DNA of 64,000 bases from an uncultured Alphaproteobacteria bacterium (GTDB lineage Bacteria > Pseudomonadota > Alphaproteobacteria > HIMB59 > GCA-002718135), in NCBI GenBank assembly GCA_902614375.1, contig CACMKZ010000004.1, positions 380-64,379 of the forward strand. The letters run 5' to 3'. Position 1 is the stretch's first letter. Each line of letters starts with the position of its first letter. The notes under the pieces are model-generated. The model had not been told where the DNA came from and searched no databases. It saw only the letters and a program-made list of their open reading frames with translations. The position numbers and the translations under genes are program-made. This document shows, in pieces, positions 43,054 to 53,626 of the stretch.

Positions 43054-43627
43054 TATTAAAGATGAAAAATCAATTATCAGAAAAAAACAAAAAATTATAA
43101 GAGATAAGATTTTTAATAATAAACCATCTCATTTTGCTTTAACTTTGTTTAATGAGCTTTTTGAAAAAATTAACTTTCAAGAAATTAATATAGTTTCTAG
43201 TTTTATTTCTATACATTCTGAGATAAATACAACAGAACTTAACAATCTTATCTTTATTAAAAATAAAATTTTATGCCTCCCTGTAATTGAAAAAAAAAAT
43301 AGTCATTTAATCTTTAAGCAATTTAAGAGTGAAGAGAATTTTGTAAAAGGATATATGAATATATCAGAGCCTCAAAATAAAAATAAAATTTTAAATCCTG
43401 AATTAATTTTTGTACCTTGTTTAGCTTTTGATAAGAAGGGAAATAGATTAGGTTATGGTGGAGGTTATTATGACAGGACATTTGCTTATTTAAATAAAAT
43501 TAATCACAGATTCATCTCTGTAGCCTATGCATATGAAGAACAAAAGTTAGATTACATACCCATAGACAAATTTGATTTTAAAGTGGATTATGTTATTACT
43601 GAAAAAAATTTATATAGTTTTCTATGA
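43046..43627 (+). CDS. 5-formyltetrahydrofolate cyclo-ligase
   Basis: IFVPCLAFDKKGNRLGYGGGYYDRT is present. Confidence 0.88.
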   Translation: MNNIKDEKSIIRKKQKIIRDKIFNNKPSHFALTLFNELFEKINFQEINIVSSFISIHSEINTTELNNLIFIKNKILCLPVIEKKNSHLIFKQFKSEENFVKGYMNISEPQNKNKILNPELIFVPCLAFDKKGNRLGYGGGYYDRTFAYLNKINHRFISVAYAYEEQKLDYIPIDKFDFKVDYVITEKNLYSFL

Positions 43628-44415
43628 AAATTCTTTTTATAGGTGATATTGTCGGTAAGGCGTCACGAAAAAAAATTAAAAAAATTATACCAACACTCAA
43701 ATCTAAATATAATACAGACATGATTATTGCTAATGGTGAGAATGCTACTTCTGGTTATGGACTTTCAAAAAAAGATGCAGAAGAATTATTTTCTAGTGGA
43801 ATTGATCTACTTACACTTGGGAATCATGCATGGGATCAAAGAGATATGCTTTCTTATATTGAAGAAAATCCAAAAATAATCAGAGCTTTGAATTATCCTG
43901 ATGGGGTTCCTGGAAAAGGATATTATAAGCTTGAACTTTTAAATGGAAAAAAAATTATAGTAGTACAAGTAATGCTCAGATTATTTATGAATTTATCATT
44001 AGATGATCCCTTTAAAGGCATAATTGAATTTCTTCAAAAAGAGAAGTTAGGCAGTACATGTGATGTGATAATTATTGATATGCATGGTGAAGCAACTTCT
44101 GAAAAAAAGGCATTTGGATATTATGTTGATGGACAAGTTACGGCAGTTTTAGGCACACATACTCATGTGCCAACGGCAGACAGTGTTATTTTACCTAAAG
44201 GTACAGCCTATCAAACAGACGTGGGGATGTCAGGTGATTATAATTCAATAATTGGTTTTGATATAAATAATCCAATACATGGATTTGTTAAGGGGTACAG
44301 GGCAGAAGGTAGATTTACACCTGCTACTGAAAACATAACAGTATGCGGGGCTTTAATAGAGATTGATACTAATACTGGTTTAGCTAAAAATATCACACCA
44401 ATTCAAGAGACATAA
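43624..44415 (+). CDS. YmdB-like metallophosphoesterase (TIGR00282 family)
   Basis: MKILFIGDIVGK, ANGENATSGYGL, DMHGEATSEK and GTHTHVPTAD are present. Confidence 0.88.
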   Translation: MKILFIGDIVGKASRKKIKKIIPTLKSKYNTDMIIANGENATSGYGLSKKDAEELFSSGIDLLTLGNHAWDQRDMLSYIEENPKIIRALNYPDGVPGKGYYKLELLNGKKIIVVQVMLRLFMNLSLDDPFKGIIEFLQKEKLGSTCDVIIIDMHGEATSEKKAFGYYVDGQVTAVLGTHTHVPTADSVILPKGTAYQTDVGMSGDYNSIIGFDINNPIHGFVKGYRAEGRFTPATENITVCGALIEIDTNTGLAKNITPIQET

Positions 44416-44494
44416 TTTACATATATTAGACACATTTATCTAATATTTTATATCTTTACTAACATCGGATTAAATATTTATAAAACTACTCGTA

Positions 44495-45244
44495 ATGGCA
44501 GGGCACTCAAAATTTAAAAATATTATGCATCGTAAAGGTGCTCAAGATAAAAAAAGAGCAAAAGTTTTCTCAAGACTTGGAAGAGAAATTTCTGTTGCTG
44601 TCAAAGTAGGAGGTGAAGATATTGAGAGTAATATTAGATTAAGATCTGCAATTTCATCGGCCAAGTCACTTAATATGCCAAAAGATAATATTGAGAGAGC
44701 AATAAAAAAAGGTCAAGGAAATGATCCTGATAGCAATTATGAAGAAGTAAGATATGAAGGATATGGCCCTGAAGGTATCGCAATAATAGTTGAGGCACTT
44801 ACAAATAATAAAAATAGAACAGCTGCTGAGATTAGGTCCTCTTTTAGTAAATATGGAGGTAATTTGGGTGAAACAGGAAGTGTTAGTTTTGGTTTTGACA
44901 GATTTGGAAATATCACTCTCGATAAAAACTTAGTAAAAGAGGATCAACTCATAGAATTTCTTATTGAAAATAATAGTGAAGATTATGAAATTAATGAGAC
45001 AGAATATTCAATATACTGTGATCAAAACAATTTACATGAACTTAATGATAAATTAATTAAACAGTATGGTCAGACTAACTCTGCAAATTTAATTTGGAAA
45101 AGTAAAAATAATATAAATATTGGAAAAGAAACAGCGGACAAACTATTTAAATTACTTGAAGTTTTAGAAGACAATGACGACGTTCAAGTTGTATCATCAA
45201 ATTTTGAAGTTGATGATAATGTTCTATCTTCACTCACAGCCTAA
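44495..45244 (+). CDS. yebC: YebC/PmpR family DNA-binding regulator
   Basis: MAGHSKFKNIMHRKGAQDKKRAK.F..L.REI and YEGYGP.G.A are present. Confidence 0.95.
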   Translation: MAGHSKFKNIMHRKGAQDKKRAKVFSRLGREISVAVKVGGEDIESNIRLRSAISSAKSLNMPKDNIERAIKKGQGNDPDSNYEEVRYEGYGPEGIAIIVEALTNNKNRTAAEIRSSFSKYGGNLGETGSVSFGFDRFGNITLDKNLVKEDQLIEFLIENNSEDYEINETEYSIYCDQNNLHELNDKLIKQYGQTNSANLIWKSKNNINIGKETADKLFKLLEVLEDNDDVQVVSSNFEVDDNVLSSLTA

Positions 45245-45258
45245 TGAAAGGAATATAG

Positions 45259-45552
45259 ATGCCTGATAAAGCCTGGAAAAAAAGAGAAAGAGATGTTGCA
45301 AACTATTTCAATGGGAAAAGGACACCTTTGAGTGGCGGTAATGGTAAAGTTACAAGAGCTGATGTAATCCATGAAGAATTATTTATAGAATGTAAACTAA
45401 GAGCAAAACATACAGCAATTAGTTTATGGGATGATACTGCAAAACTTGCAAAAGAGGAGGGTAAGACACCAGTAATAGCATTATGTGAAAAAAATAGACC
45501 AGGGTTTTGGGTTATGGTTCATAGTAGCGATCTTGAAAAAATTAAAAAATAA
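45259..45552 (+). CDS. Small PD-(D/E)XK nuclease, archaeal Hjc-like Holliday-junction-resolvase candidate
   Basis: The motif string E10-R11 ... R21-x3-S25-G26 ... D35-V-I ... I43-E44-C-K46 ... G-K-T-P-V-I-A-L ... G-F-W-V aligns by eye with Pyrococcus Hjc (ERELI..RSAGS..VDLVA..IEVK..GGIPVLAV..GWRFIEV). Confidence 0.55.
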   Translation: MPDKAWKKRERDVANYFNGKRTPLSGGNGKVTRADVIHEELFIECKLRAKHTAISLWDDTAKLAKEEGKTPVIALCEKNRPGFWVMVHSSDLEKIKK

Positions 45553-45557
45553 TAATT

Positions 45558-46271
45558 ATGGCAGATATTAATAGTACAAATTTATCGACAGAAGCACCAG
45601 ATTTTTCAATGCTTGCTTTATTCATGCAGGCTGACATTGTTGTCAAATCTGTAATTATAATATTAATCTTAGCCTCTCTTTATTCTTGGAATGTAATAAT
45701 TTCAAAAATTTTAAGAATTAGACAATTAAAAAAACTTGAAAAAGAATTTGAAGATATTTTTTGGTCTGGAAATTCATTTGAAGATTTATATGAAACTTTA
45801 AACTTTAATCAGACAGACCCAAAATCAAAATTATTTTGTGCTGCAATCTTAGAGTGGAAAAAAAGTAAAGCTCAGTTTGAAAATGATACATCTGATATTA
45901 ATTCTTTAAAAGATAGAATGATGAGATCAATGACAGTTGTTTTCAATAAAGAAAGTGAAAATGTTGAGAGAAATTTAACATTTCTCGCAACTGCTGGATC
46001 AACTGCACCTTTTATTGGGTTATTTGGAACAGTCTGGGGTATAATGAATAGTTTTAAATCTATTGCAATAGCTCAAAATACAAATTTAGCAGTAGTTGCA
46101 CCAGGAATTGCTGAAGCCCTTTTTGCAACTGCATTAGGTCTTTTTGTGGCTATACCTGCCGTAGTTGCTTACAATAAAATTTCAAACGATTTATCAAAAT
46201 ATTTTATATCCTTGGAAACATTTATGGATGAATTCTCAACAATTTTTTTTAGACAATTAGAGAAAAAATAA
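45558..46271 (+). CDS. tolQ: Tol-Pal system protein TolQ
   Basis: This is a MotA/TolQ/ExbB channel (LATAGSTAPFIGLFGTVWGIMNSF, APGIAEALFATALGL). Confidence 0.93.
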   Translation: MADINSTNLSTEAPDFSMLALFMQADIVVKSVIIILILASLYSWNVIISKILRIRQLKKLEKEFEDIFWSGNSFEDLYETLNFNQTDPKSKLFCAAILEWKKSKAQFENDTSDINSLKDRMMRSMTVVFNKESENVERNLTFLATAGSTAPFIGLFGTVWGIMNSFKSIAIAQNTNLAVVAPGIAEALFATALGLFVAIPAVVAYNKISNDLSKYFISLETFMDEFSTIFFRQLEKK

Positions 46272-46272
46272 A

Positions 46273-46701
46273 TTGATTACTTCAAATAATTTAAACAAAC
46301 GAAAAAAGCAAAGGTACACTCAAATGAGTGAAATTAACGTTACACCTTTTGTAGATGTTATGCTTGTTTTACTAATTGTTTTTATGGTTACCGCACCTCT
46401 TCTAACGGTTGGAATTAAAGTTGATTTACCAAAGGTTAAAGCTACTGCATTAACTGATATTAAAGATCCAATTGAGATAACCGTTAAGTTAGACGGAGAA
46501 GTCTACATTGGAGAATCAAAGGTTGAAGTAGAAAATTTAATTCCTCGACTAAACGCTATTACTGAACAAAACACAGAAGCAAGAATTTATATACGAGGTG
46601 ATAGAGTGGTAGCTTATGGAAGGATTATGGAAATTATGTCCATAATAAATTCAGCAGGATATATTAAGGTTGCATTAATTACTCAAAATCTTGAGCAATA
46701 G
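46273..46701 (+). CDS. tolR: Tol-Pal system protein TolR
   Basis: MSEINVTPFVDVMLVLLIVFMV is the ExbD/TolR signature. The start is TTG at 46273 or ATG at 46324. Confidence 0.9.
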   Translation: MITSNNLNKRKKQRYTQMSEINVTPFVDVMLVLLIVFMVTAPLLTVGIKVDLPKVKATALTDIKDPIEITVKLDGEVYIGESKVEVENLIPRLNAITEQNTEARIYIRGDRVVAYGRIMEIMSIINSAGYIKVALITQNLEQ

Positions 46702-47772
46702 ATGGATCGTATAAGCTATAATAGTTTAAAAATTCTAAACTTTTTTGAAAATTTAAATCCTAAAACATCAGGAGTTATTTTTTCAACACTAATACATTTA
46801 ATTATTCTTTTGTTTATGATCGGCTTACCTAATTTTTTTTCTCCAAAAGAAATCTATGTTCCAAACGTAATACCTATTGAAATACTTAATGTTGATGAAA
46901 ATACAAATTTGAAAAAATCTGATACTGAAAAACCAGAAAATAAAAATAAGGAAACAATTACTAAGCAAAAAAAATTTAATTCATCAGATCAATTAGAAGT
47001 AAAAAAAAATGTTGAAATAAACAAAACTGAAATTGAAGAAAAAACTAATCCAAATCAACCAGTTTTGGAAATGAAACAAACTCCAAATTTAGAAGTTAAG
47101 GAAACAAAAAAAGTAGTTATCAAAGAAAAGGAAATTTTAGAGGTTAAAAAAAAAGTAGAAACAATTAAAACTGATATAATTAAACCAAAACTCAAGCCAA
47201 AGCCAAAAATTATAAATAATGAAAATGTTAAATCGGATTTAGATGTTGAAACAAACATAAAGGATAAACCAAAGTTGGAAAATGATAAAACCGTATCTAA
47301 ACCAAAGCCGAAACCTGAGAAAGATTTTAGCATAGCATCCATGCTTAAAGATTTAAGAAATGAAAAAACAAATAGAGTTCAAAATGAAGTTAAGGAAGAG
47401 GTTGAAGAGGTTGATAATAAAAGTACAGATGATATTGATGACAATGTTATGCTATCAATATCTGAAATAGACATGTTGAGGCAGCAATTATCTTCTTGTT
47501 GGAATGCTCCAGCAGGTGCAGTTATAGAAAGAGGAGACAAAGTAACAATTTCAGCAAAAATATTACAAAATATGAAAGTTTCACCAAGTAGTATCCGCAT
47601 TGTTGACACAAATATAGCTAAAACTAATCCATTTTATGGACCAATCACAGATAGCGCAATGAGAACTCTTTTAAACCCAGAATGTACACCGTTAAAACTT
47701 CCAAAAGATAAATATAATCTATGGAAAAATCTTACAATTACTTTTGATTATAGTATTATGAAAGGATATTGA
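46702..47772 (+). CDS. tolA: TolA-like protein
   Basis: It has an N-terminal TM helix, a long K/E/P-rich domain II and a C-terminal globular domain (LSSCWNAPAG), and sits between tolR and tolB. Confidence 0.75.
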   Translation: MDRISYNSLKILNFFENLNPKTSGVIFSTLIHLIILLFMIGLPNFFSPKEIYVPNVIPIEILNVDENTNLKKSDTEKPENKNKETITKQKKFNSSDQLEVKKNVEINKTEIEEKTNPNQPVLEMKQTPNLEVKETKKVVIKEKEILEVKKKVETIKTDIIKPKLKPKPKIINNENVKSDLDVETNIKDKPKLENDKTVSKPKPKPEKDFSIASMLKDLRNEKTNRVQNEVKEEVEEVDNKSTDDIDDNVMLSISEIDMLRQQLSSCWNAPAGAVIERGDKVTISAKILQNMKVSPSSIRIVDTNIAKTNPFYGPITDSAMRTLLNPECTPLKLPKDKYNLWKNLTITFDYSIMKGY

Positions 47773-49088
47773 TGAAAAAAGTTTTCTTAATAACCCTTTT
47801 TTTATTTTCGAGTTTAAAAGTCCATTCATTAGAAGTGACTCTAACACAAGGTAGTGTGAAGCCAACTCCGATAGCTGTGACAGAATTATATTCAAAAAAT
47901 TCGCAATTAACAAAAGTAGGCAAAAATATTTCATCTGTAATCTCTGATAACTTAGAAAGGTCTGGTCTTTTTTTACCAATAGATAAAAGATCATTTATTC
48001 AAGATAATCAATCTCTATCTAATAAACCTAGATTTGAAGATTGGAAGTTAATTAAAGCACAACATTTAGTTTCAGGAAAAATTTCATCTAATAATGGAAA
48101 AATATCTGTAGAATTTAGATTGTTTGATGTCTTTCAACAAAAGCAAATAGTTGGAAAAAAGTACGAAACAAATGAGAAAAATTGGAGAAGAGTTGCACAT
48201 ATTATTTCAGATTCTATTTTTAAAAATATAACAGGTGAAGGTGGTTACTTTGATACAAGAATAGTTTATGTTGCTGAAACTGGTCCAAAAGAAAATAAAC
48301 AAAAAAGATTAGCAATCATGGATCAAGATCAATCAAATCATCGTTTTTTAACGGACGGATCATATCTAGTTTTAACTCCAAGGTTCTCTCCAAATTCGCA
48401 AAAAATTACATACATGTCTTACGTAAACAGAAATAATCCTAGGGTTTATATTTTTGATATAGAAACTGGTAAACAAGAAATAGTTGGTGAGTTTCCAGGA
48501 ATGACATTTGCGCCACGTTTTTCACCTGATGGTAATCAAATCGTTATGTCATACACTGATCCAGAAATTGGTAATTCTGAAATTTATATTCTTGATTTAA
48601 AAACAAGAATATCAAAAAGAGTTACTAATAATTCTTCAATAGATGTGTCTGCAAGTTTTTCACCTGATGGCAAAAAAATAGTTTTTAATTCAGATAGAAG
48701 TGGAAGAAGGCACTTGTATGTATGTGATAATAATGGAAAAAATATTAAGAGAATTAGCAGGGAAGCAGGAAGTTACTACACACCAGTTTGGTCTCCAAGA
48801 GGTGATATGATTGCATTCACTAAACAAGAGGGAGGTCAATTTTATATAGGTGTTATGGAGGTTGATGGCTCAAATGAAAGAATGATTGCAAAATCATTTC
48901 ATGTTGAGGGGCCAACATGGGCACCAAATGGTAGATTTTTAATGTATTTTAAAGAAGAGAGAACTGCTGAAGATGGATCCGGAGGTGAATCCAGTCTATA
49001 TTCTATTGATTTAACTGGTTTTAATGAAAGAAAGGTAATAACCCCGCTAGGTGGATCTGATCCAGCATGGTCGCCATTGATGCACTAA
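47769..49088 (+). CDS. tolB: Tol-Pal system beta-propeller protein TolB
   Basis: A signal peptide is followed by repeated P.FSPDG... propeller blades. Confidence 0.93.
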   Translation: MMKKVFLITLFLFSSLKVHSLEVTLTQGSVKPTPIAVTELYSKNSQLTKVGKNISSVISDNLERSGLFLPIDKRSFIQDNQSLSNKPRFEDWKLIKAQHLVSGKISSNNGKISVEFRLFDVFQQKQIVGKKYETNEKNWRRVAHIISDSIFKNITGEGGYFDTRIVYVAETGPKENKQKRLAIMDQDQSNHRFLTDGSYLVLTPRFSPNSQKITYMSYVNRNNPRVYIFDIETGKQEIVGEFPGMTFAPRFSPDGNQIVMSYTDPEIGNSEIYILDLKTRISKRVTNNSSIDVSASFSPDGKKIVFNSDRSGRRHLYVCDNNGKNIKRISREAGSYYTPVWSPRGDMIAFTKQEGGQFYIGVMEVDGSNERMIAKSFHVEGPTWAPNGRFLMYFKEERTAEDGSGGESSLYSIDLTGFNERKVITPLGGSDPAWSPLMH

Positions 49089-49188
49089 TCCAATATAATA
49101 CAAAAAAATATACGAAATTTTGAAAAAAATGTTAAGGATCTGCAAATAATTTAGTATATCTACTCAAAGTATTAAGGGAGCATTATTT

Positions 49189-49710
49189 ATGTTTTACAAG
49201 TTTTTTATCTCTATATTTATGGTTTTATTTGTTGCAGCTTGTGCAACAACTCCAAAAGACTCAGCTGATTCCTCAGGTTCAGGATCAAGTAGTTCTGGAA
49301 GTGATGTTTCTTCAGAAGGAACTATTACTGAAACTACAGGAAGTGGCATAGTTTCTGGATCACAGGAAGATTTAATCGTTAACGTTGGTGACAGAGTATT
49401 CTTTGGATATGACAGTTCAGATTTAGACTCTGACGCTCTAGAGTTACTTCAAGATCAAGTTGCATGGCTTAAACAGAATAGCGATGTTACTGTAACCATC
49501 GAAGGTCACTGTGACGAAAGAGGGACTAGGGAGTACAACTTAGCTCTTGGTGAAAAAAGAGCTCAGGCTGTAAAAAATTATCTCATAGGATTAGGAATAA
49601 ATCCTGACAGAGTTTCAACTATTAGTTATGGTAAAGAAAGACCTGCTGTTGTCGGCTCAAATGATGGAGCATGGGCTCAAAACAGAAGATCAGTAACTTT
49701 AGTTAATTAA
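49189..49710 (+). CDS. pal: Peptidoglycan-associated lipoprotein Pal
   Basis: It has a lipobox (VAACAT), a Ser/Gly-rich linker and an OmpA-like domain (IEGHCDERGTREYNLALGEKRAQAV). Confidence 0.92.
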   Translation: MFYKFFISIFMVLFVAACATTPKDSADSSGSGSSSSGSDVSSEGTITETTGSGIVSGSQEDLIVNVGDRVFFGYDSSDLDSDALELLQDQVAWLKQNSDVTVTIEGHCDERGTREYNLALGEKRAQAVKNYLIGLGINPDRVSTISYGKERPAVVGSNDGAWAQNRRSVTLVN

Positions 49711-49730
49711 TTATTATTCCTTAATACTTT

Positions 49731-49760
49731 GGCGCTATAGAAATATAGCGCCACATTTTT
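49731..49760 (+). terminator. Intrinsic terminator after pal
   Basis: GGCGCTATA-GAAA-TATAGCGCC is a 9-bp stem with a GNRA-type tetraloop, followed by ACATTTTTA. Confidence 0.7.
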
Positions 49761-49781
49761 ATCTCAATTAGAAATTAAAAT

Positions 49782-50705
49782 GTGCTAATGTTTAAATACA
49801 TACTCACAGTTTTAATTTTATTTTTTTCAAGCTATTCTTTTTCTAATGAAAGTGATCTAACAGTCTCACAACAATTAGAAAGATTACAAAGAGAAGTTTC
49901 AGATCTTTCTAAAGAAGTATTTTCAAATTCACCGAATCAATCAAATGGAACAAATAATGATTTTGTTAAAAATCTTTCTGCTATCGATTTGCGAATATAT
50001 GATATTGAAAACGATATAAAAAATTTAACATCTAATTTAGAAGAATTGTATTTTCAATTAGACGATATCTTTAATAAATTAGAAAATTTAGAATCAGTTA
50101 TTAATAATTTCCAATCAGTTCCATTAAATAATGTTGAAGTAAATACTGATGAAACTTCACAAGATAGTTCTGAAGTTAAAAGCAATACTTTAAGTGATAC
50201 TGAAACTGAAAATACACTTGGAACATTAAATATTTCAAAAAACACAAATGATACAAATGAAGAAGTCATATCTAAAGATCAGGAAATAAATTCTAATGAA
50301 AAAGAAGAGGTCTTATCACCTGAAGATCAATTCCAGGAAGCATTTGATAACATTAGAGATAAAAAATGGCAGGATGCCAAAACTTCATTCGAACAGTTTA
50401 TTTCAGACAATCCTGATAATCAACTATCAGGTTCAGCACATTATTGGCTCGGAGAATTATATATTTTAGAAAAAAATTATAGAGAAGCAGCACTTATATT
50501 TGCAGAAGGTTTTCAAAAATTTCCAGATAGTATTAAAGCTGCAGAAATGCTTTTCAAACTTTCTCAGTCTTTATACCAAGTTGAAAAAACTGTTGAGGCT
50601 TGTAAAACTATGGAAAAATTAATTATTGATTTTCCAAAAAATAAAATAATTTCTCAAACTAAAAAACAAATTGTTGAGTATAATTGTTTAGAAAATAATG
50701 AATGA
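49782..50705 (+). CDS. cpoB: Tol-Pal system protein CpoB/YbgF
   Basis: It has a signal peptide, a coiled coil and C-terminal TPR repeats (SGSAHYWLGELYILEKNYREAALIF). The likely true start is ATG at 49788; the track start is GTG. Confidence 0.8.
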   Translation: MLMFKYILTVLILFFSSYSFSNESDLTVSQQLERLQREVSDLSKEVFSNSPNQSNGTNNDFVKNLSAIDLRIYDIENDIKNLTSNLEELYFQLDDIFNKLENLESVINNFQSVPLNNVEVNTDETSQDSSEVKSNTLSDTETENTLGTLNISKNTNDTNEEVISKDQEINSNEKEEVLSPEDQFQEAFDNIRDKKWQDAKTSFEQFISDNPDNQLSGSAHYWLGELYILEKNYREAALIFAEGFQKFPDSIKAAEMLFKLSQSLYQVEKTVEACKTMEKLIIDFPKNKIISQTKKQIVEYNCLENNE

Positions 50706-51724: not shown

Positions 51725-53626
51725 ATGAAAAACATCAGTAAAAACGTTGTATTATGGATTATAATTGGATTGCTCTTAATTGTGCTTTTCAATCTTTTTC
51801 AAGGAAGTTCTAACAATAGAAATACTTCAAAAATATCCTTTTCTGACTTCATTGCTGCAACAGAAAGTGGAAATGTTTCTGAGGTTAATATAAATGGAAG
51901 CAACGTTACAGGATTTCTAAACGACGGACGATCATTTAGCACATATGTCCCTAATTATCCTAATTTGGTAGATAAATTAAATGAAAGTGGCGTGAAAATC
52001 ACTGCCGAGCCCTCCGAAAGATCAATGCATCCACTTTTGAGTGTATTGCTGTCGTGGTTTCCAATGCTTCTATTAATTGGAGTTTGGATTTTCTTTATGC
52101 GCCAGATGCAAGGCGGTGGTGGAAAAGCAATGGGCTTTGGTAAATCTAAAGCTAAATTATTAAATGAAGCAGTTGGTAAAGTTACATTTGATGATGTAGC
52201 AGGTATTGATGAAGCTAAACAAGAATTAGAAGAAGTTGTTGAATTTTTAAAAGATCCTTCAAAGTTTTCCAGATTAGGCGGTAAAATTCCAAGAGGTGCA
52301 CTTCTAGTTGGTCCTCCAGGTACTGGAAAAACTTTACTTGCAAGAGCAATTGCAGGCGAAGCAAATGTTCCCTTCTTTTCTATTTCAGGATCAGATTTTG
52401 TTGAAATGTTTGTAGGGGTCGGAGCTAGTAGAGTTAGAGATATGTTTGACCAAGGTAAAAAAAATGCACCTTGTATAGTTTTTATTGACGAAATTGACGC
52501 TGTTGGAAGGCACCGTGGTGCTGGTCTTGGTGGTGGTAATGATGAAAGAGAACAAACTCTAAATCAACTTCTTGTGGAAATGGATGGGTTTGAAGCTAAT
52601 GCAGGTGTAATCATTATTGCTGCAACAAATAGGCCTGATGTTCTTGATCCAGCTTTGCTTAGACCAGGAAGATTTGACCGTCAAATAACAGTTAATAATC
52701 CTGATGTAATGGGTAGAGACAAAATACTTAAAGTTCATATTAAAAAAATTAAAGTTTCACCAAAATTTGACTCAAAAATTATTGCAAGGGGAACTCCAGG
52801 CTTTTCTGGAGCTGATTTAGCAAATCTAGTTAATGAAGCAGCATTACTAGCTGCTAGAAAAAATAAAAGAATGGTTACACTTGAGGATTTTGAAAGTGCC
52901 AAAGATAAAGTGATGATGGGTGCTGAAAAACGATCTATGGTCATGTCAGAAGATGAAAAAAAACTTACAGCTTATCATGAAGCTGGTCATGCAGTAGCAA
53001 CCCTTCACTCACCAGCCTCTGATCCAATACATAAAGCAACTATAATTCCGAGAGGCAGAGCCTTAGGTATGGTTATGAGACTCCCAGAAAAAGATCAGCT
53101 GTCTATGCGAAAAGATCAAATGAAAGCTCATTTATTAATAGCTACTGGGGGCAGAATTGCTGAAGAAATGATTTTTGGTAAGGATAAAATTACAAATGGT
53201 GCGGCTAGCGATATACAAATGGTGACAAATCTATCAAAAAAAATGATTACTGAATGGGGTATGAGTGAAAAATTAGGCCGCCTTAGATATAATAGTGATA
53301 GTGAGGAAGTTTTCCTTGGGCATTCTGTTGCGCAATCAAAAAATTTATCTGACTCCACAGCAAAATTAATTGACGAAGAAGTTAGATCTCTTGCAGAAGA
53401 GGCTGAAAATAATTGTAGAAAAATTCTTCAAGATAATATTGAAGAATTGCATATAGTTGCTAAGGGGCTTTTAGAGTATGAAACATTATCAGGTGATGAA
53501 ATTAAAGATTTAATCAAAGGTATAAAGCCAACCCGAGATGATTTTGATAATGATATAAACACACCAAAAAAACCAGCCACATCTGTTCCAAAAACAGGCG
53601 GATCCGCTACGGCACCGGCAAACTAA
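51725..53626 (+). CDS. ftsH: ATP-dependent zinc metalloprotease FtsH
   Basis: [19 protein letters not shown], the AAA second region of homology and the HEAGHA zinc motif are present. Confidence 0.99.

Follow-up and report, generated by a model that had tools for sequence, protein, structure and literature searches.

In almost all bacteria, the intermediates of homologous recombination are resolved by RuvABC or by RuvAB together with RecU, and the suppression of ruv mutants by RusA is a textbook case. Resolvases of the Hjc type are known from archaea, archaeal viruses, and at least one Thermus phage, and an archaeal Hjc restores repair in Escherichia coli devoid of RuvC (PMC10956419); a survey from 2012 found Hjc (PF01870) in "a handful of unrelated bacteria" (PMC3424549). 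About half of the RuvC-containing bacteria have yebC and ruvC in a shared operon, the gene with the next strongest link to RuvABC is ybgC, and 27 organisms with RuvAB and without RuvC or RecU may hold an "unknown resolvase" (PMC3403352). Here, we describe a gene located directly after yebC in a stretch of 64,000 nucleotides (nt; contig CACMKZ010000004.1; hereafter, the window) from an uncultured alphaproteobacterium of the HIMB59 lineage. The gene, at 45259–45552, encodes an Hjc-like, phage-type PD-(D/E)XK nuclease of 97 amino acids (aa), and we use for it the working name X.

X stands where other Alphaproteobacteria have ruvC, ruvA, ruvB, and ybgC, and it is probably a stand-alone junction resolvase. 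We estimate the probability that X serves in vivo as the junction-resolving enzyme of its clade, captured from a phage and replacing the ruv block, at roughly 60%.

Gene X in the Place of the ruv Block

As outgroups, we used AT-rich alphaproteobacterial genomes found by a DNA pattern of the 5′ end of yebC, including SAR116, Planktomarina, Holosporaceae, Rickettsiales, Saccharibacter, Commensalibacter, and others. The gene order in these is ymdB-yebC-ruvC-ruvA-ruvB-ybgC-tolQ-tolR, with ruvC at about +30 nt, ruvA at +600, ruvB at +1300, and tolQ at +2850, much as an initial annotation of the window had described for many members of the class. In the HIMB59 clade, the order is ymdB-yebC-X-tolQ-tolR at every locus with enough downstream sequence, X being at +18 and tolQ at +317. 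As ymdB precedes yebC in the clade and in the ruvCAB-keeping outgroups alike and the flanks (ymdB-yebC and tolQ-tolR) are the same on both sides, X replaces the whole four-gene block at this locus. The initial annotation had proposed a displacement of RuvC; it was right in that X occupies the ruv slot, but what is gone from the locus is the complete ruvC-ruvA-ruvB-ybgC block and not ruvC alone.

Our search for the missing genes covered the surroundings of X. In the window, tblastn with E. coli RuvA, RuvB, and RuvC taken from the annotated K-12 record, seven alphaproteobacterial RuvC/RuvA/RuvB/YbgC sets, and a phage-type RuvC found no RuvA, RuvB, RuvC, or YbgC, as had been noted before; the sole "RuvB" signal came from the AAA domain of ftsH (52301–52405). 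No Ruv genes were seen within 7 kb on either side of X in about 155 genomes, and the literature on HIMB59/AEGEAN-169, supplements included, makes no mention of them. Among streamlined marine Alphaproteobacteria of a comparable kind, there are documented cases in which no Ruv genes are detectable: SAR11 genomes (Candidatus Pelagibacter ubique HTCC1062, HTCC7211, and HIMB114) were scored as having YebC and lacking RuvC, RecU, RuvA, and RuvB (PMC3403352, supplement). Among the sampled lineages that bear RuvB, none is clearly closest to the clade, the YebC identities all falling within 40–56%. In one genome, that of Alpha proteobacterium SCGC AAA536-K22, ruvC-ruvA-ruvB are found about 4–6 kb ahead of ymdB-yebC and in the opposite orientation, on a contig that stops 160 nt past yebC; given this inverted upstream placement, the ruv block is rearrangeable in some lineages.

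X is a real gene under strong constraint. The identical protein is found on 833 public contigs, where the label given by NCBI is "hypothetical protein," and a scan of one genome per species recovered relatives in 116 species, from marine single-cell and metagenome genomes, some labeled HIMB59. The order ymdB-yebC-X-tolQ-tolR was seen at 80 of 80 loci among the matches listed (the best 80 of the 116 species); overall, X keeps this place in about 110 HIMB59/AEGEAN-169 genomes, with conserved synteny in all genomes of the HIMB59 clade that we retrieved. X from AG-891-K05, the reference genome of a family of the HIMB59 order and 98.8% complete (PMC10734472), is 99% identical to that of the window. 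Even in the deepest members, metagenome-assembled genomes (MAGs) of the MarineAlpha6 type whose YebC and TolQ are 46–52% identical to those of the window, X sits in the same slot and is 64–69% identical. The ratio of nonsynonymous to synonymous substitution rates (dN/dS) of X is 0.019 among close genomes and 0.039 among distant ones; with ymdB, yebC, tolQ, and tolR having values of 0.07–0.12 in the distant comparison, X has the smallest ratio among the five genes of the operon for which it was measured.

Two contigs in this sample call for a comment. On CACKTS010000014.1, a 25-kb contig of the single-amplified genome (SAG) AG-457-I08, yebC-X is found near both ends in opposite orientation and one of the copies has no tolQ or tolR downstream; the double copy is probably a chimeric inverted-repeat artifact of single-cell amplification. 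NHJW02000023.1, titled "Gammaproteobacteria bacterium TMED225," carries a ymdB-yebC-X-tolQ-tolR locus of the HIMB59 type with 94–98% protein identity to the window and is likely a misbinned contig or part of a mislabeled MAG.

Sequence Family, Predicted Fold, and Relationship to Hjc

Against PHROGs, X has a single match, to family 2002, "Holliday junction resolvase" (E value 3.2e-10, 41 bits), in which residues 3–94 of the 97 align with positions 16–112 of the 130 in the profile, making X a member of the family; a viral homologue matches the same profile at 9.8e-9. An exhaustive profile search extended the relatives to 1,034 representative clusters at E ≤ 1e-3 (573 of them at ≤1e-10), mostly of 95–180 aa, and one JGI member already has the name "Holliday junction resolvase." Aligning 81 diverse members from cells and viruses showed no variation at E10, R21, G26, D35, and K46 and conservation of at least 90% at W6, K7, R11, A14, S25, and E44. 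In a scan of Pfam and NCBIfam, X matched no model; neither RecU (PF03838) nor VRR-NUC (PF08774) matched at E ≤ 10, and matches were similarly lacking for RuvC (PF02075) and T7 endonuclease I (PF05367). When the 81 members were scanned singly against Pfam, the hits were all subthreshold: Hjc in 1 of 81 (E value 0.028), UPF0102 in 1 of 81, and, weakly, PDDEXK_15 (PF24608, a putative PDDEXK endonuclease of phages) in 13 of 81, with a best E value of 0.0027 and none for X. RecU and VRR-NUC were outside the 25 families most often matched by these members.

A remote relationship to Hjc is suggested by profile–profile comparison. For this, we used the Hjc of P. furiosus, whose sequence is 100% identical to PDB 1GEF, and built a profile of four sequences comprising P. 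furiosus Hjc, A. fulgidus Hjc, and the Sulfolobus Hje and Hjc segments. Aligned by hhalign with this Hjc/Hje profile, the X family reached a probability of 86.9% and an E value of 4.2e-6 over 73 columns, pairing E10/R11 of X with E9/R10 of Hjc, R21 with R25, D35 with D33, E44 with E46, K46 with K48, and KTPVIAL with GIPVLAV. By mutagenesis, E9, R10, R25, D33, E46, K48, and K81 are essential in P. furiosus Hjc (PMC10956419), and the counterparts of six of these, all but K81, are invariant or at least 90% conserved in the 81 members of the X family. The same comparison gave no reason to place X with other resolvases: the probability was 0.5% for T7 endonuclease I (E value 0.13), with an alignment confined to the D...ExK segment, 0.5% for E. 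coli RusA, with 7 aligned columns, and 0.1% both for E. coli RuvC, for which a Pfam match is also missing, and for the YbcO control.

The predicted structures are in line with this. An AlphaFold model based on 22 close sequences had a mean predicted local distance difference test (pLDDT) score of 75.9, and one based on 72 more diverse sequences had a pLDDT of 84.2 and a predicted template modeling (TM) score of 0.77, all five models of the latter run scoring 82–84. Both show the α-β-β-β-α-β-β-α nuclease core, with helices at residues 2–16 and 53–67 and strands at 20–21, 36–37, 41–47, 70–76, and 84–86. Searched with Foldseek against PDB, both models had the Hjc of A. fulgidus and P. furiosus on top with a probability of 0.98–1.0, and all top matches of the predicted structures were PD-(D/E)XK nucleases; RecU and T7 endonuclease I were outside the top 50 matches of either model. 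In BFVD, a database of predicted viral structures, 17 matches were below 1e-3, with TM scores of up to 0.74, and several of them are annotated as Holliday junction resolvases.

Taken with the conserved E10, D35, E44, and K46, the predicted fold and the structural matches bear out the PD-(D/E)XK assignment of the initial annotation. Its more specific claim, that X is of the Hjc type, holds in that the closest solved relatives are Hjc and the catalytic set can be mapped, but X stays below the level of the Pfam Hjc model; we think it very probable that X has the fold of Hjc and is its remote homologue. In our reading, the X family is best described as a phage-centered sister family of Hjc, outside Pfam Hjc and without a Pfam model of its own. 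The protein is indeed unusually small, as had been remarked: the solved Hjc and Hje chains are 123–147 aa long.

Phage Relatives and the Origin of X

Outside the clade, the relatives of X are genes of phages and prophages. In a second scan of cellular genomes, which found 162 relatives, the best 80 were all from the HIMB59/MarineAlpha5/MarineAlpha6 clade except one; this exception among the matches listed was a Desulfamplus MAG, where the genes before X (AAA_24, DUF669, a DEAD helicase, and Prim-Pol) form a phage replication module. Elsewhere, homologues of X were found flanked by an integrase and a toxin–antitoxin system, between an AAA_24-SSB-exonuclease set and a DnaB helicase on a contig that also bears an integrase and a terminase, directly before a small terminase gene, and among short phage-like genes. 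At least 113 relatives were found on viral contigs in IMG/VR. In 53 of the 80 viral loci listed, terL begins immediately downstream of X, giving the order terS-X-terL; most of these loci (e.g., L183:5335-7685) come from related marine phages of 36–38 kb, in which X overlaps the start of terL. An X-like domain also forms the C terminus of a 330-aa protein of Bacteroides phage BS162P1 (OP172706.1; L081:4323-5315), annotated as "DNA endonuclease I-HmuI" and containing NUMOD4 and HNH_3, so the nuclease module has been fused to homing-endonuclease parts as well. The settings in phages agree with a nuclease for recombination or debranching, and PADLOC found no match of X to known defense systems.

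Given that its relatives outside the clade are phage and prophage genes, the source of X is viral and not archaeal, contrary to what the resemblance to Hjc had suggested earlier; the nearest relatives are those of PHROG 2002, sitting in replication and packaging modules. With identities to the protein of the window that reach 80%, some viral copies are closer to it than the most divergent cellular copies, which points to gene flow between these marine phages and hosts of the HIMB59 clade. A neighbor-joining bootstrap tree of 97 columns was too poorly resolved for polarizing the transfers between host and phage or for choosing between a single capture followed by reacquisition by phages and repeated exchange. 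As one slot is common to the whole clade, a single ancient capture is the simplest account.

A Phage-Type RuvC in the Same Slot of a Second Lineage

One of the sampled genomes (L393; 29% G+C), which shares the gene order of the window from tkt through tolR, contains yebC, a 157-aa open reading frame (ORF), ybgC, tolQ, and tolR, with no ruvA or ruvB. The ORF matches PHROG 1770, "Holliday junction resolvase," at 7.7e-23 and falls slightly below the cutoff of Pfam RuvC (20.2 bits against 22.2; E value 6e-4). The same order was found in 13 of 13 genomes of what is a separate marine lineage of 27–30% GC, with members such as TMED62/93, "Pelagibacterales" NP101/SP81, and Rhodospirillaceae SAGs. Weaker homologues of this phage-type RuvC, about 35% identical, were seen in two copies on different contigs of Halomonas salifodinae JCM 14803 with 61–66% G+C, which suggests that the copies there are prophage-borne resolvases.

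Judged by their sequences, two streamlined marine lineages thus carry small phage-type resolvases of two unrelated folds directly after yebC. We regard this as the strongest contextual argument: as the second lineage has an unrelated phage-type resolvase in the same place, the slot appears to select for the junction-resolving function. The finding also bears on SAR11. Since tblastn with E. coli RuvC missed the RuvC of this lineage, the scoring of SAR11 as lacking RuvC might conceal a divergent resolvase; among the matches listed in a homologue search with the phage-type RuvC, there were no named isolates.

The Locus and Its Operon

The features of the locus are collected in Table 1. All of the signature residues reported in the initial annotation (E10-R11, R21, S25-G26, D35, and E44-x-K46) are found at their positions in the translation, as are the two segments G68-K-T-P-V-I-A-L75 and G82-F-W-V-M-V87, and the coordinates reproduce the spacing of 14 nt from the yebC stop to X and of 5 nt from X to tolQ. 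In a scan of 43500–50000, the hairpin beyond pal was the sole terminator-like site on the + strand, and with none before it, X is embedded in a yebC-X-tolQ-tolR-tolA-tolB-pal unit. The window as a whole has 29.4% G+C, and no Rfam family reached its gathering score anywhere in it. A 43-aa ORF on the − strand (45241–45372), overlapping the start of X, is unsupported and most likely a by-product of the AT-rich sequence.

Table 1. Features of the X locus and the phage-type RuvC of the second lineage (positions refer to the window unless a locus is given)
Feature	Position	Strand	Evidence
ymdB-like metallophosphoesterase gene, upstream of yebC	43624..44415	+	ORF; ortholog (L083) with Pfam Metallophos/YmdB
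yebC (TACO1/YebC family)	44495..45244	+	Pfam PF01709 (2.3e-50), PF20772 (1.3e-32)
Shine–Dalgarno-like AAAGGAA, 5 nt ahead of the ATG of X	45247..45253	+	Sequence inspection
X, 97 aa, ATG start, double TAA stop	45259..45552	+	ORF; PHROG 2002, hhalign, AlphaFold, Foldseek, dN/dS
tolQ	45558..46271	+	Pfam MotA_ExbB (1.2e-35)
tolR	46273..46701	+	ORF; ortholog with Pfam ExbD
tolA-like gene (Lys/Glu/Pro-rich, N-terminal membrane anchor)	46702..47772	+	Position between tolR and tolB; ortholog without Pfam match
tolB	47769..49088	+	ORF; ortholog with Pfam TolB_N/PD40
pal (OmpA-family lipoprotein)	49189..49710	+	ORF; ortholog with Pfam OmpA
Terminator-like hairpin and T-run, just 3′ of pal	49730..49763	+	Scan of 43500–50000
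Phage-type RuvC, 157 aa	L393:1705-2178	-	PHROG 1770, subcutoff Pfam RuvC

Discussion

We propose that X is a small Mg2+-dependent, structure-specific endonuclease with the PD-(D/E)XK fold, related by homology to PHROG 2002 and, at a greater distance, to the Hjc of archaea. If it works like Hjc, it would be a homodimer that binds four-way DNA junctions by their structure and nicks two opposing strands, leaving paired nicks that can be ligated; E10, D35, and E44 would serve as metal ligands, K46 would stabilize the transition state, and R11 and R21 would contact the DNA. An ancestor of the HIMB59/AEGEAN-169 clade may have captured the gene from a phage, with X taking over the place of ruvC-ruvA-ruvB-ybgC between yebC and tolQ, and it would now be cotranscribed with yebC and tol-pal. 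Similarly to prophage RusA in E. coli ruv mutants, X probably resolves the junctions of the cell without a dedicated RuvAB motor, presumably acting autonomously and possibly, as for RusA, on junctions moved by RecG or RadA (PMC10956419). If Ruv genes are missing from the rest of the genome as well, as we presume, X could be the only Holliday junction resolvase of the clade and work without any RuvAB motor; this stronger proposal is a tentative one, and we put its chances slightly below even.

Several observations weigh against X being the resolvase of its clade. The similarity between X and Hjc is remote: compared with a single Hjc sequence, hhalign gave an E value of 0.008 over 69 columns (controls, 0.12–0.73), searches of PDB sequences with X alone and with the family profile retrieved no relative and no Hjc, and the Foldseek matches to Hjc have E values of about 1e-2 and TM scores of at most 0.58. 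Of the two Pfam families that the initial annotation had singled out, Hjc and VRR-NUC, X matches neither at E ≤ 10. K81 of Hjc, one of its essential residues, is aligned to C76 of X, and a lysine, K78, is found two residues later. The "resolvase" labels in PHROGs, JGI, and the phage records are computational, and other PD-(D/E)XK nucleases with the same catalytic set have different jobs. The terS-X-terL arrangement also fits a packaging-associated nuclease, and in the homing-endonuclease fusion of phage BS162P1, the X-like domain is 47% identical to the protein of the window.

These points leave room for other explanations. X might be an accessory Hjc-like nuclease, acting on stalled forks, flaps, or phage DNA, with RuvC or RuvABC persisting at another locus. 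Our search for Ruv genes covered the 64-kb window and 7 kb on either side of X in about 155 genomes, a limit that counts against the stronger claims above, and the inverted ruvCAB genes of SCGC AAA536-K22 demonstrate that such genes can move. The ancestral position of the block, however, holds X alone in every HIMB59-clade genome, complete Ruv loss has been scored for the comparable streamlined genomes of SAR11 (PMC3403352), and the purifying selection on X is stronger than that on YebC, TolQ, and TolR, which would be unusual for an accessory gene; we consider this explanation rather unlikely. X could also be a domesticated phage endonuclease, packaging associated or of the homing type, that has a job unrelated to recombination and came to lie beside yebC by accident, through a deletion and an insertion. 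While terS-X-terL is the commonest viral context and the NUMOD4+HNH+X fusion exists, other phage copies are located in replication and recombination modules next to AAA_24, SSB, exonuclease, and helicases, and the PADLOC result does not favor domestication either. A second lineage has independently acquired a different phage resolvase, of the RuvC type, in the same slot, and the slot of X has been kept across a deep divergence with very low dN/dS; we hold this explanation to be improbable.

Finally, X could be a protein that has lost catalysis while retaining the nuclease fold and that binds DNA or serves as an adaptor, for instance as a partner of YebC or Tol-Pal. Inactive PD-(D/E)XK homologues are known (PMC3424549), and according to the terminator scan, X is part of the tol-pal transcription unit. 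Across the 81 diverse cellular and viral members, though, E10, D35, E44, K46, R11, and R21 are invariant or nearly so. Dead homologues usually lose their catalytic residues, and we therefore hold this to be highly improbable. A phage-derived resolvase in the former place of the ruv block remains the explanation that we prefer.

Overall, the novelty lies in a phage-type, Hjc-like enzyme of 97 aa being a highly constrained core gene of an abundant clade and replacing the ruvCAB-ybgC block at the locus. X is a concrete candidate for how abundant streamlined marine bacteria complete homologous recombination, a process thought to maintain the population diversity of these bacteria (PMC10734472). 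If active, it would be one of the smallest enzymes that resolve junctions and would show clearly how a single phage gene can displace a housekeeping machine of several genes at its own locus; it would also make a compact reagent with which to detect or cut branched DNA. Were X also the sole resolvase, a free-living ocean clade would have swapped RuvABC and ybgC, about 2.8 kb, for a viral gene of 0.3 kb; together with the phage-type RuvC of the second lineage, this would mean that streamlining repeatedly replaces the bacterial resolvasome by minimal stand-alone phage resolvases, and X would be a candidate for the role of the "unknown resolvase" in bacteria without RuvC and RecU.

Comparison with Known Systems

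The closest relatives of X are the phage proteins of PHROG 2002 and kindred uncharacterized proteins of Caudoviricetes, with which it shares the profile membership, the size class, and the invariant residues, viral copies being as much as 80% identical; in contrast to these, the X of the window is not on a mobile element but is a fixed, vertically inherited core gene in the yebC-tol-pal operon. Archaeal Hjc and Hje (PF01870; PDB 1GEF, 2WCW, 1HH1, and 1OB8) share with X the PD-(D/E)XK fold and the order of its elements and are the best structural match in PDB, and the counterparts of Hjc E9, R10, R25, D33, E46, and K48 are conserved in X. Hjc works as a resolvase on its own and, in E. coli, can take the place of RuvC (PMC10956419). 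X, however, is only about 20% identical to it, lacks the C-terminal extension, and has a bacterial and phage distribution rather than an archaeal one.

RecU of Firmicutes and Mollicutes is a PD-(D/E)XK resolvase and the textbook non-orthologous displacement of RuvC (PMC3403352). The lineages with RecU have, however, retained RuvAB, with recU distant from ruvAB (PMC3403352), whereas ruvAB is gone from the locus of X. Canonical RuvC has the same position immediately after yebC and presumably the same substrate, but its RNase H fold is unrelated to X and it works with RuvAB. In function, the best analogy to a phage enzyme that takes over the resolution of junctions by itself is RusA of the cryptic prophage DLP12 of E. 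coli, a small phage-derived resolvase that is independent of RuvAB and can replace the function of RuvABC (PMC10956419). The two are unrelated in fold and sequence, and while RusA is silent in wild-type E. coli and resides in a prophage, X is a constitutive member of an operon and fixed throughout its clade.

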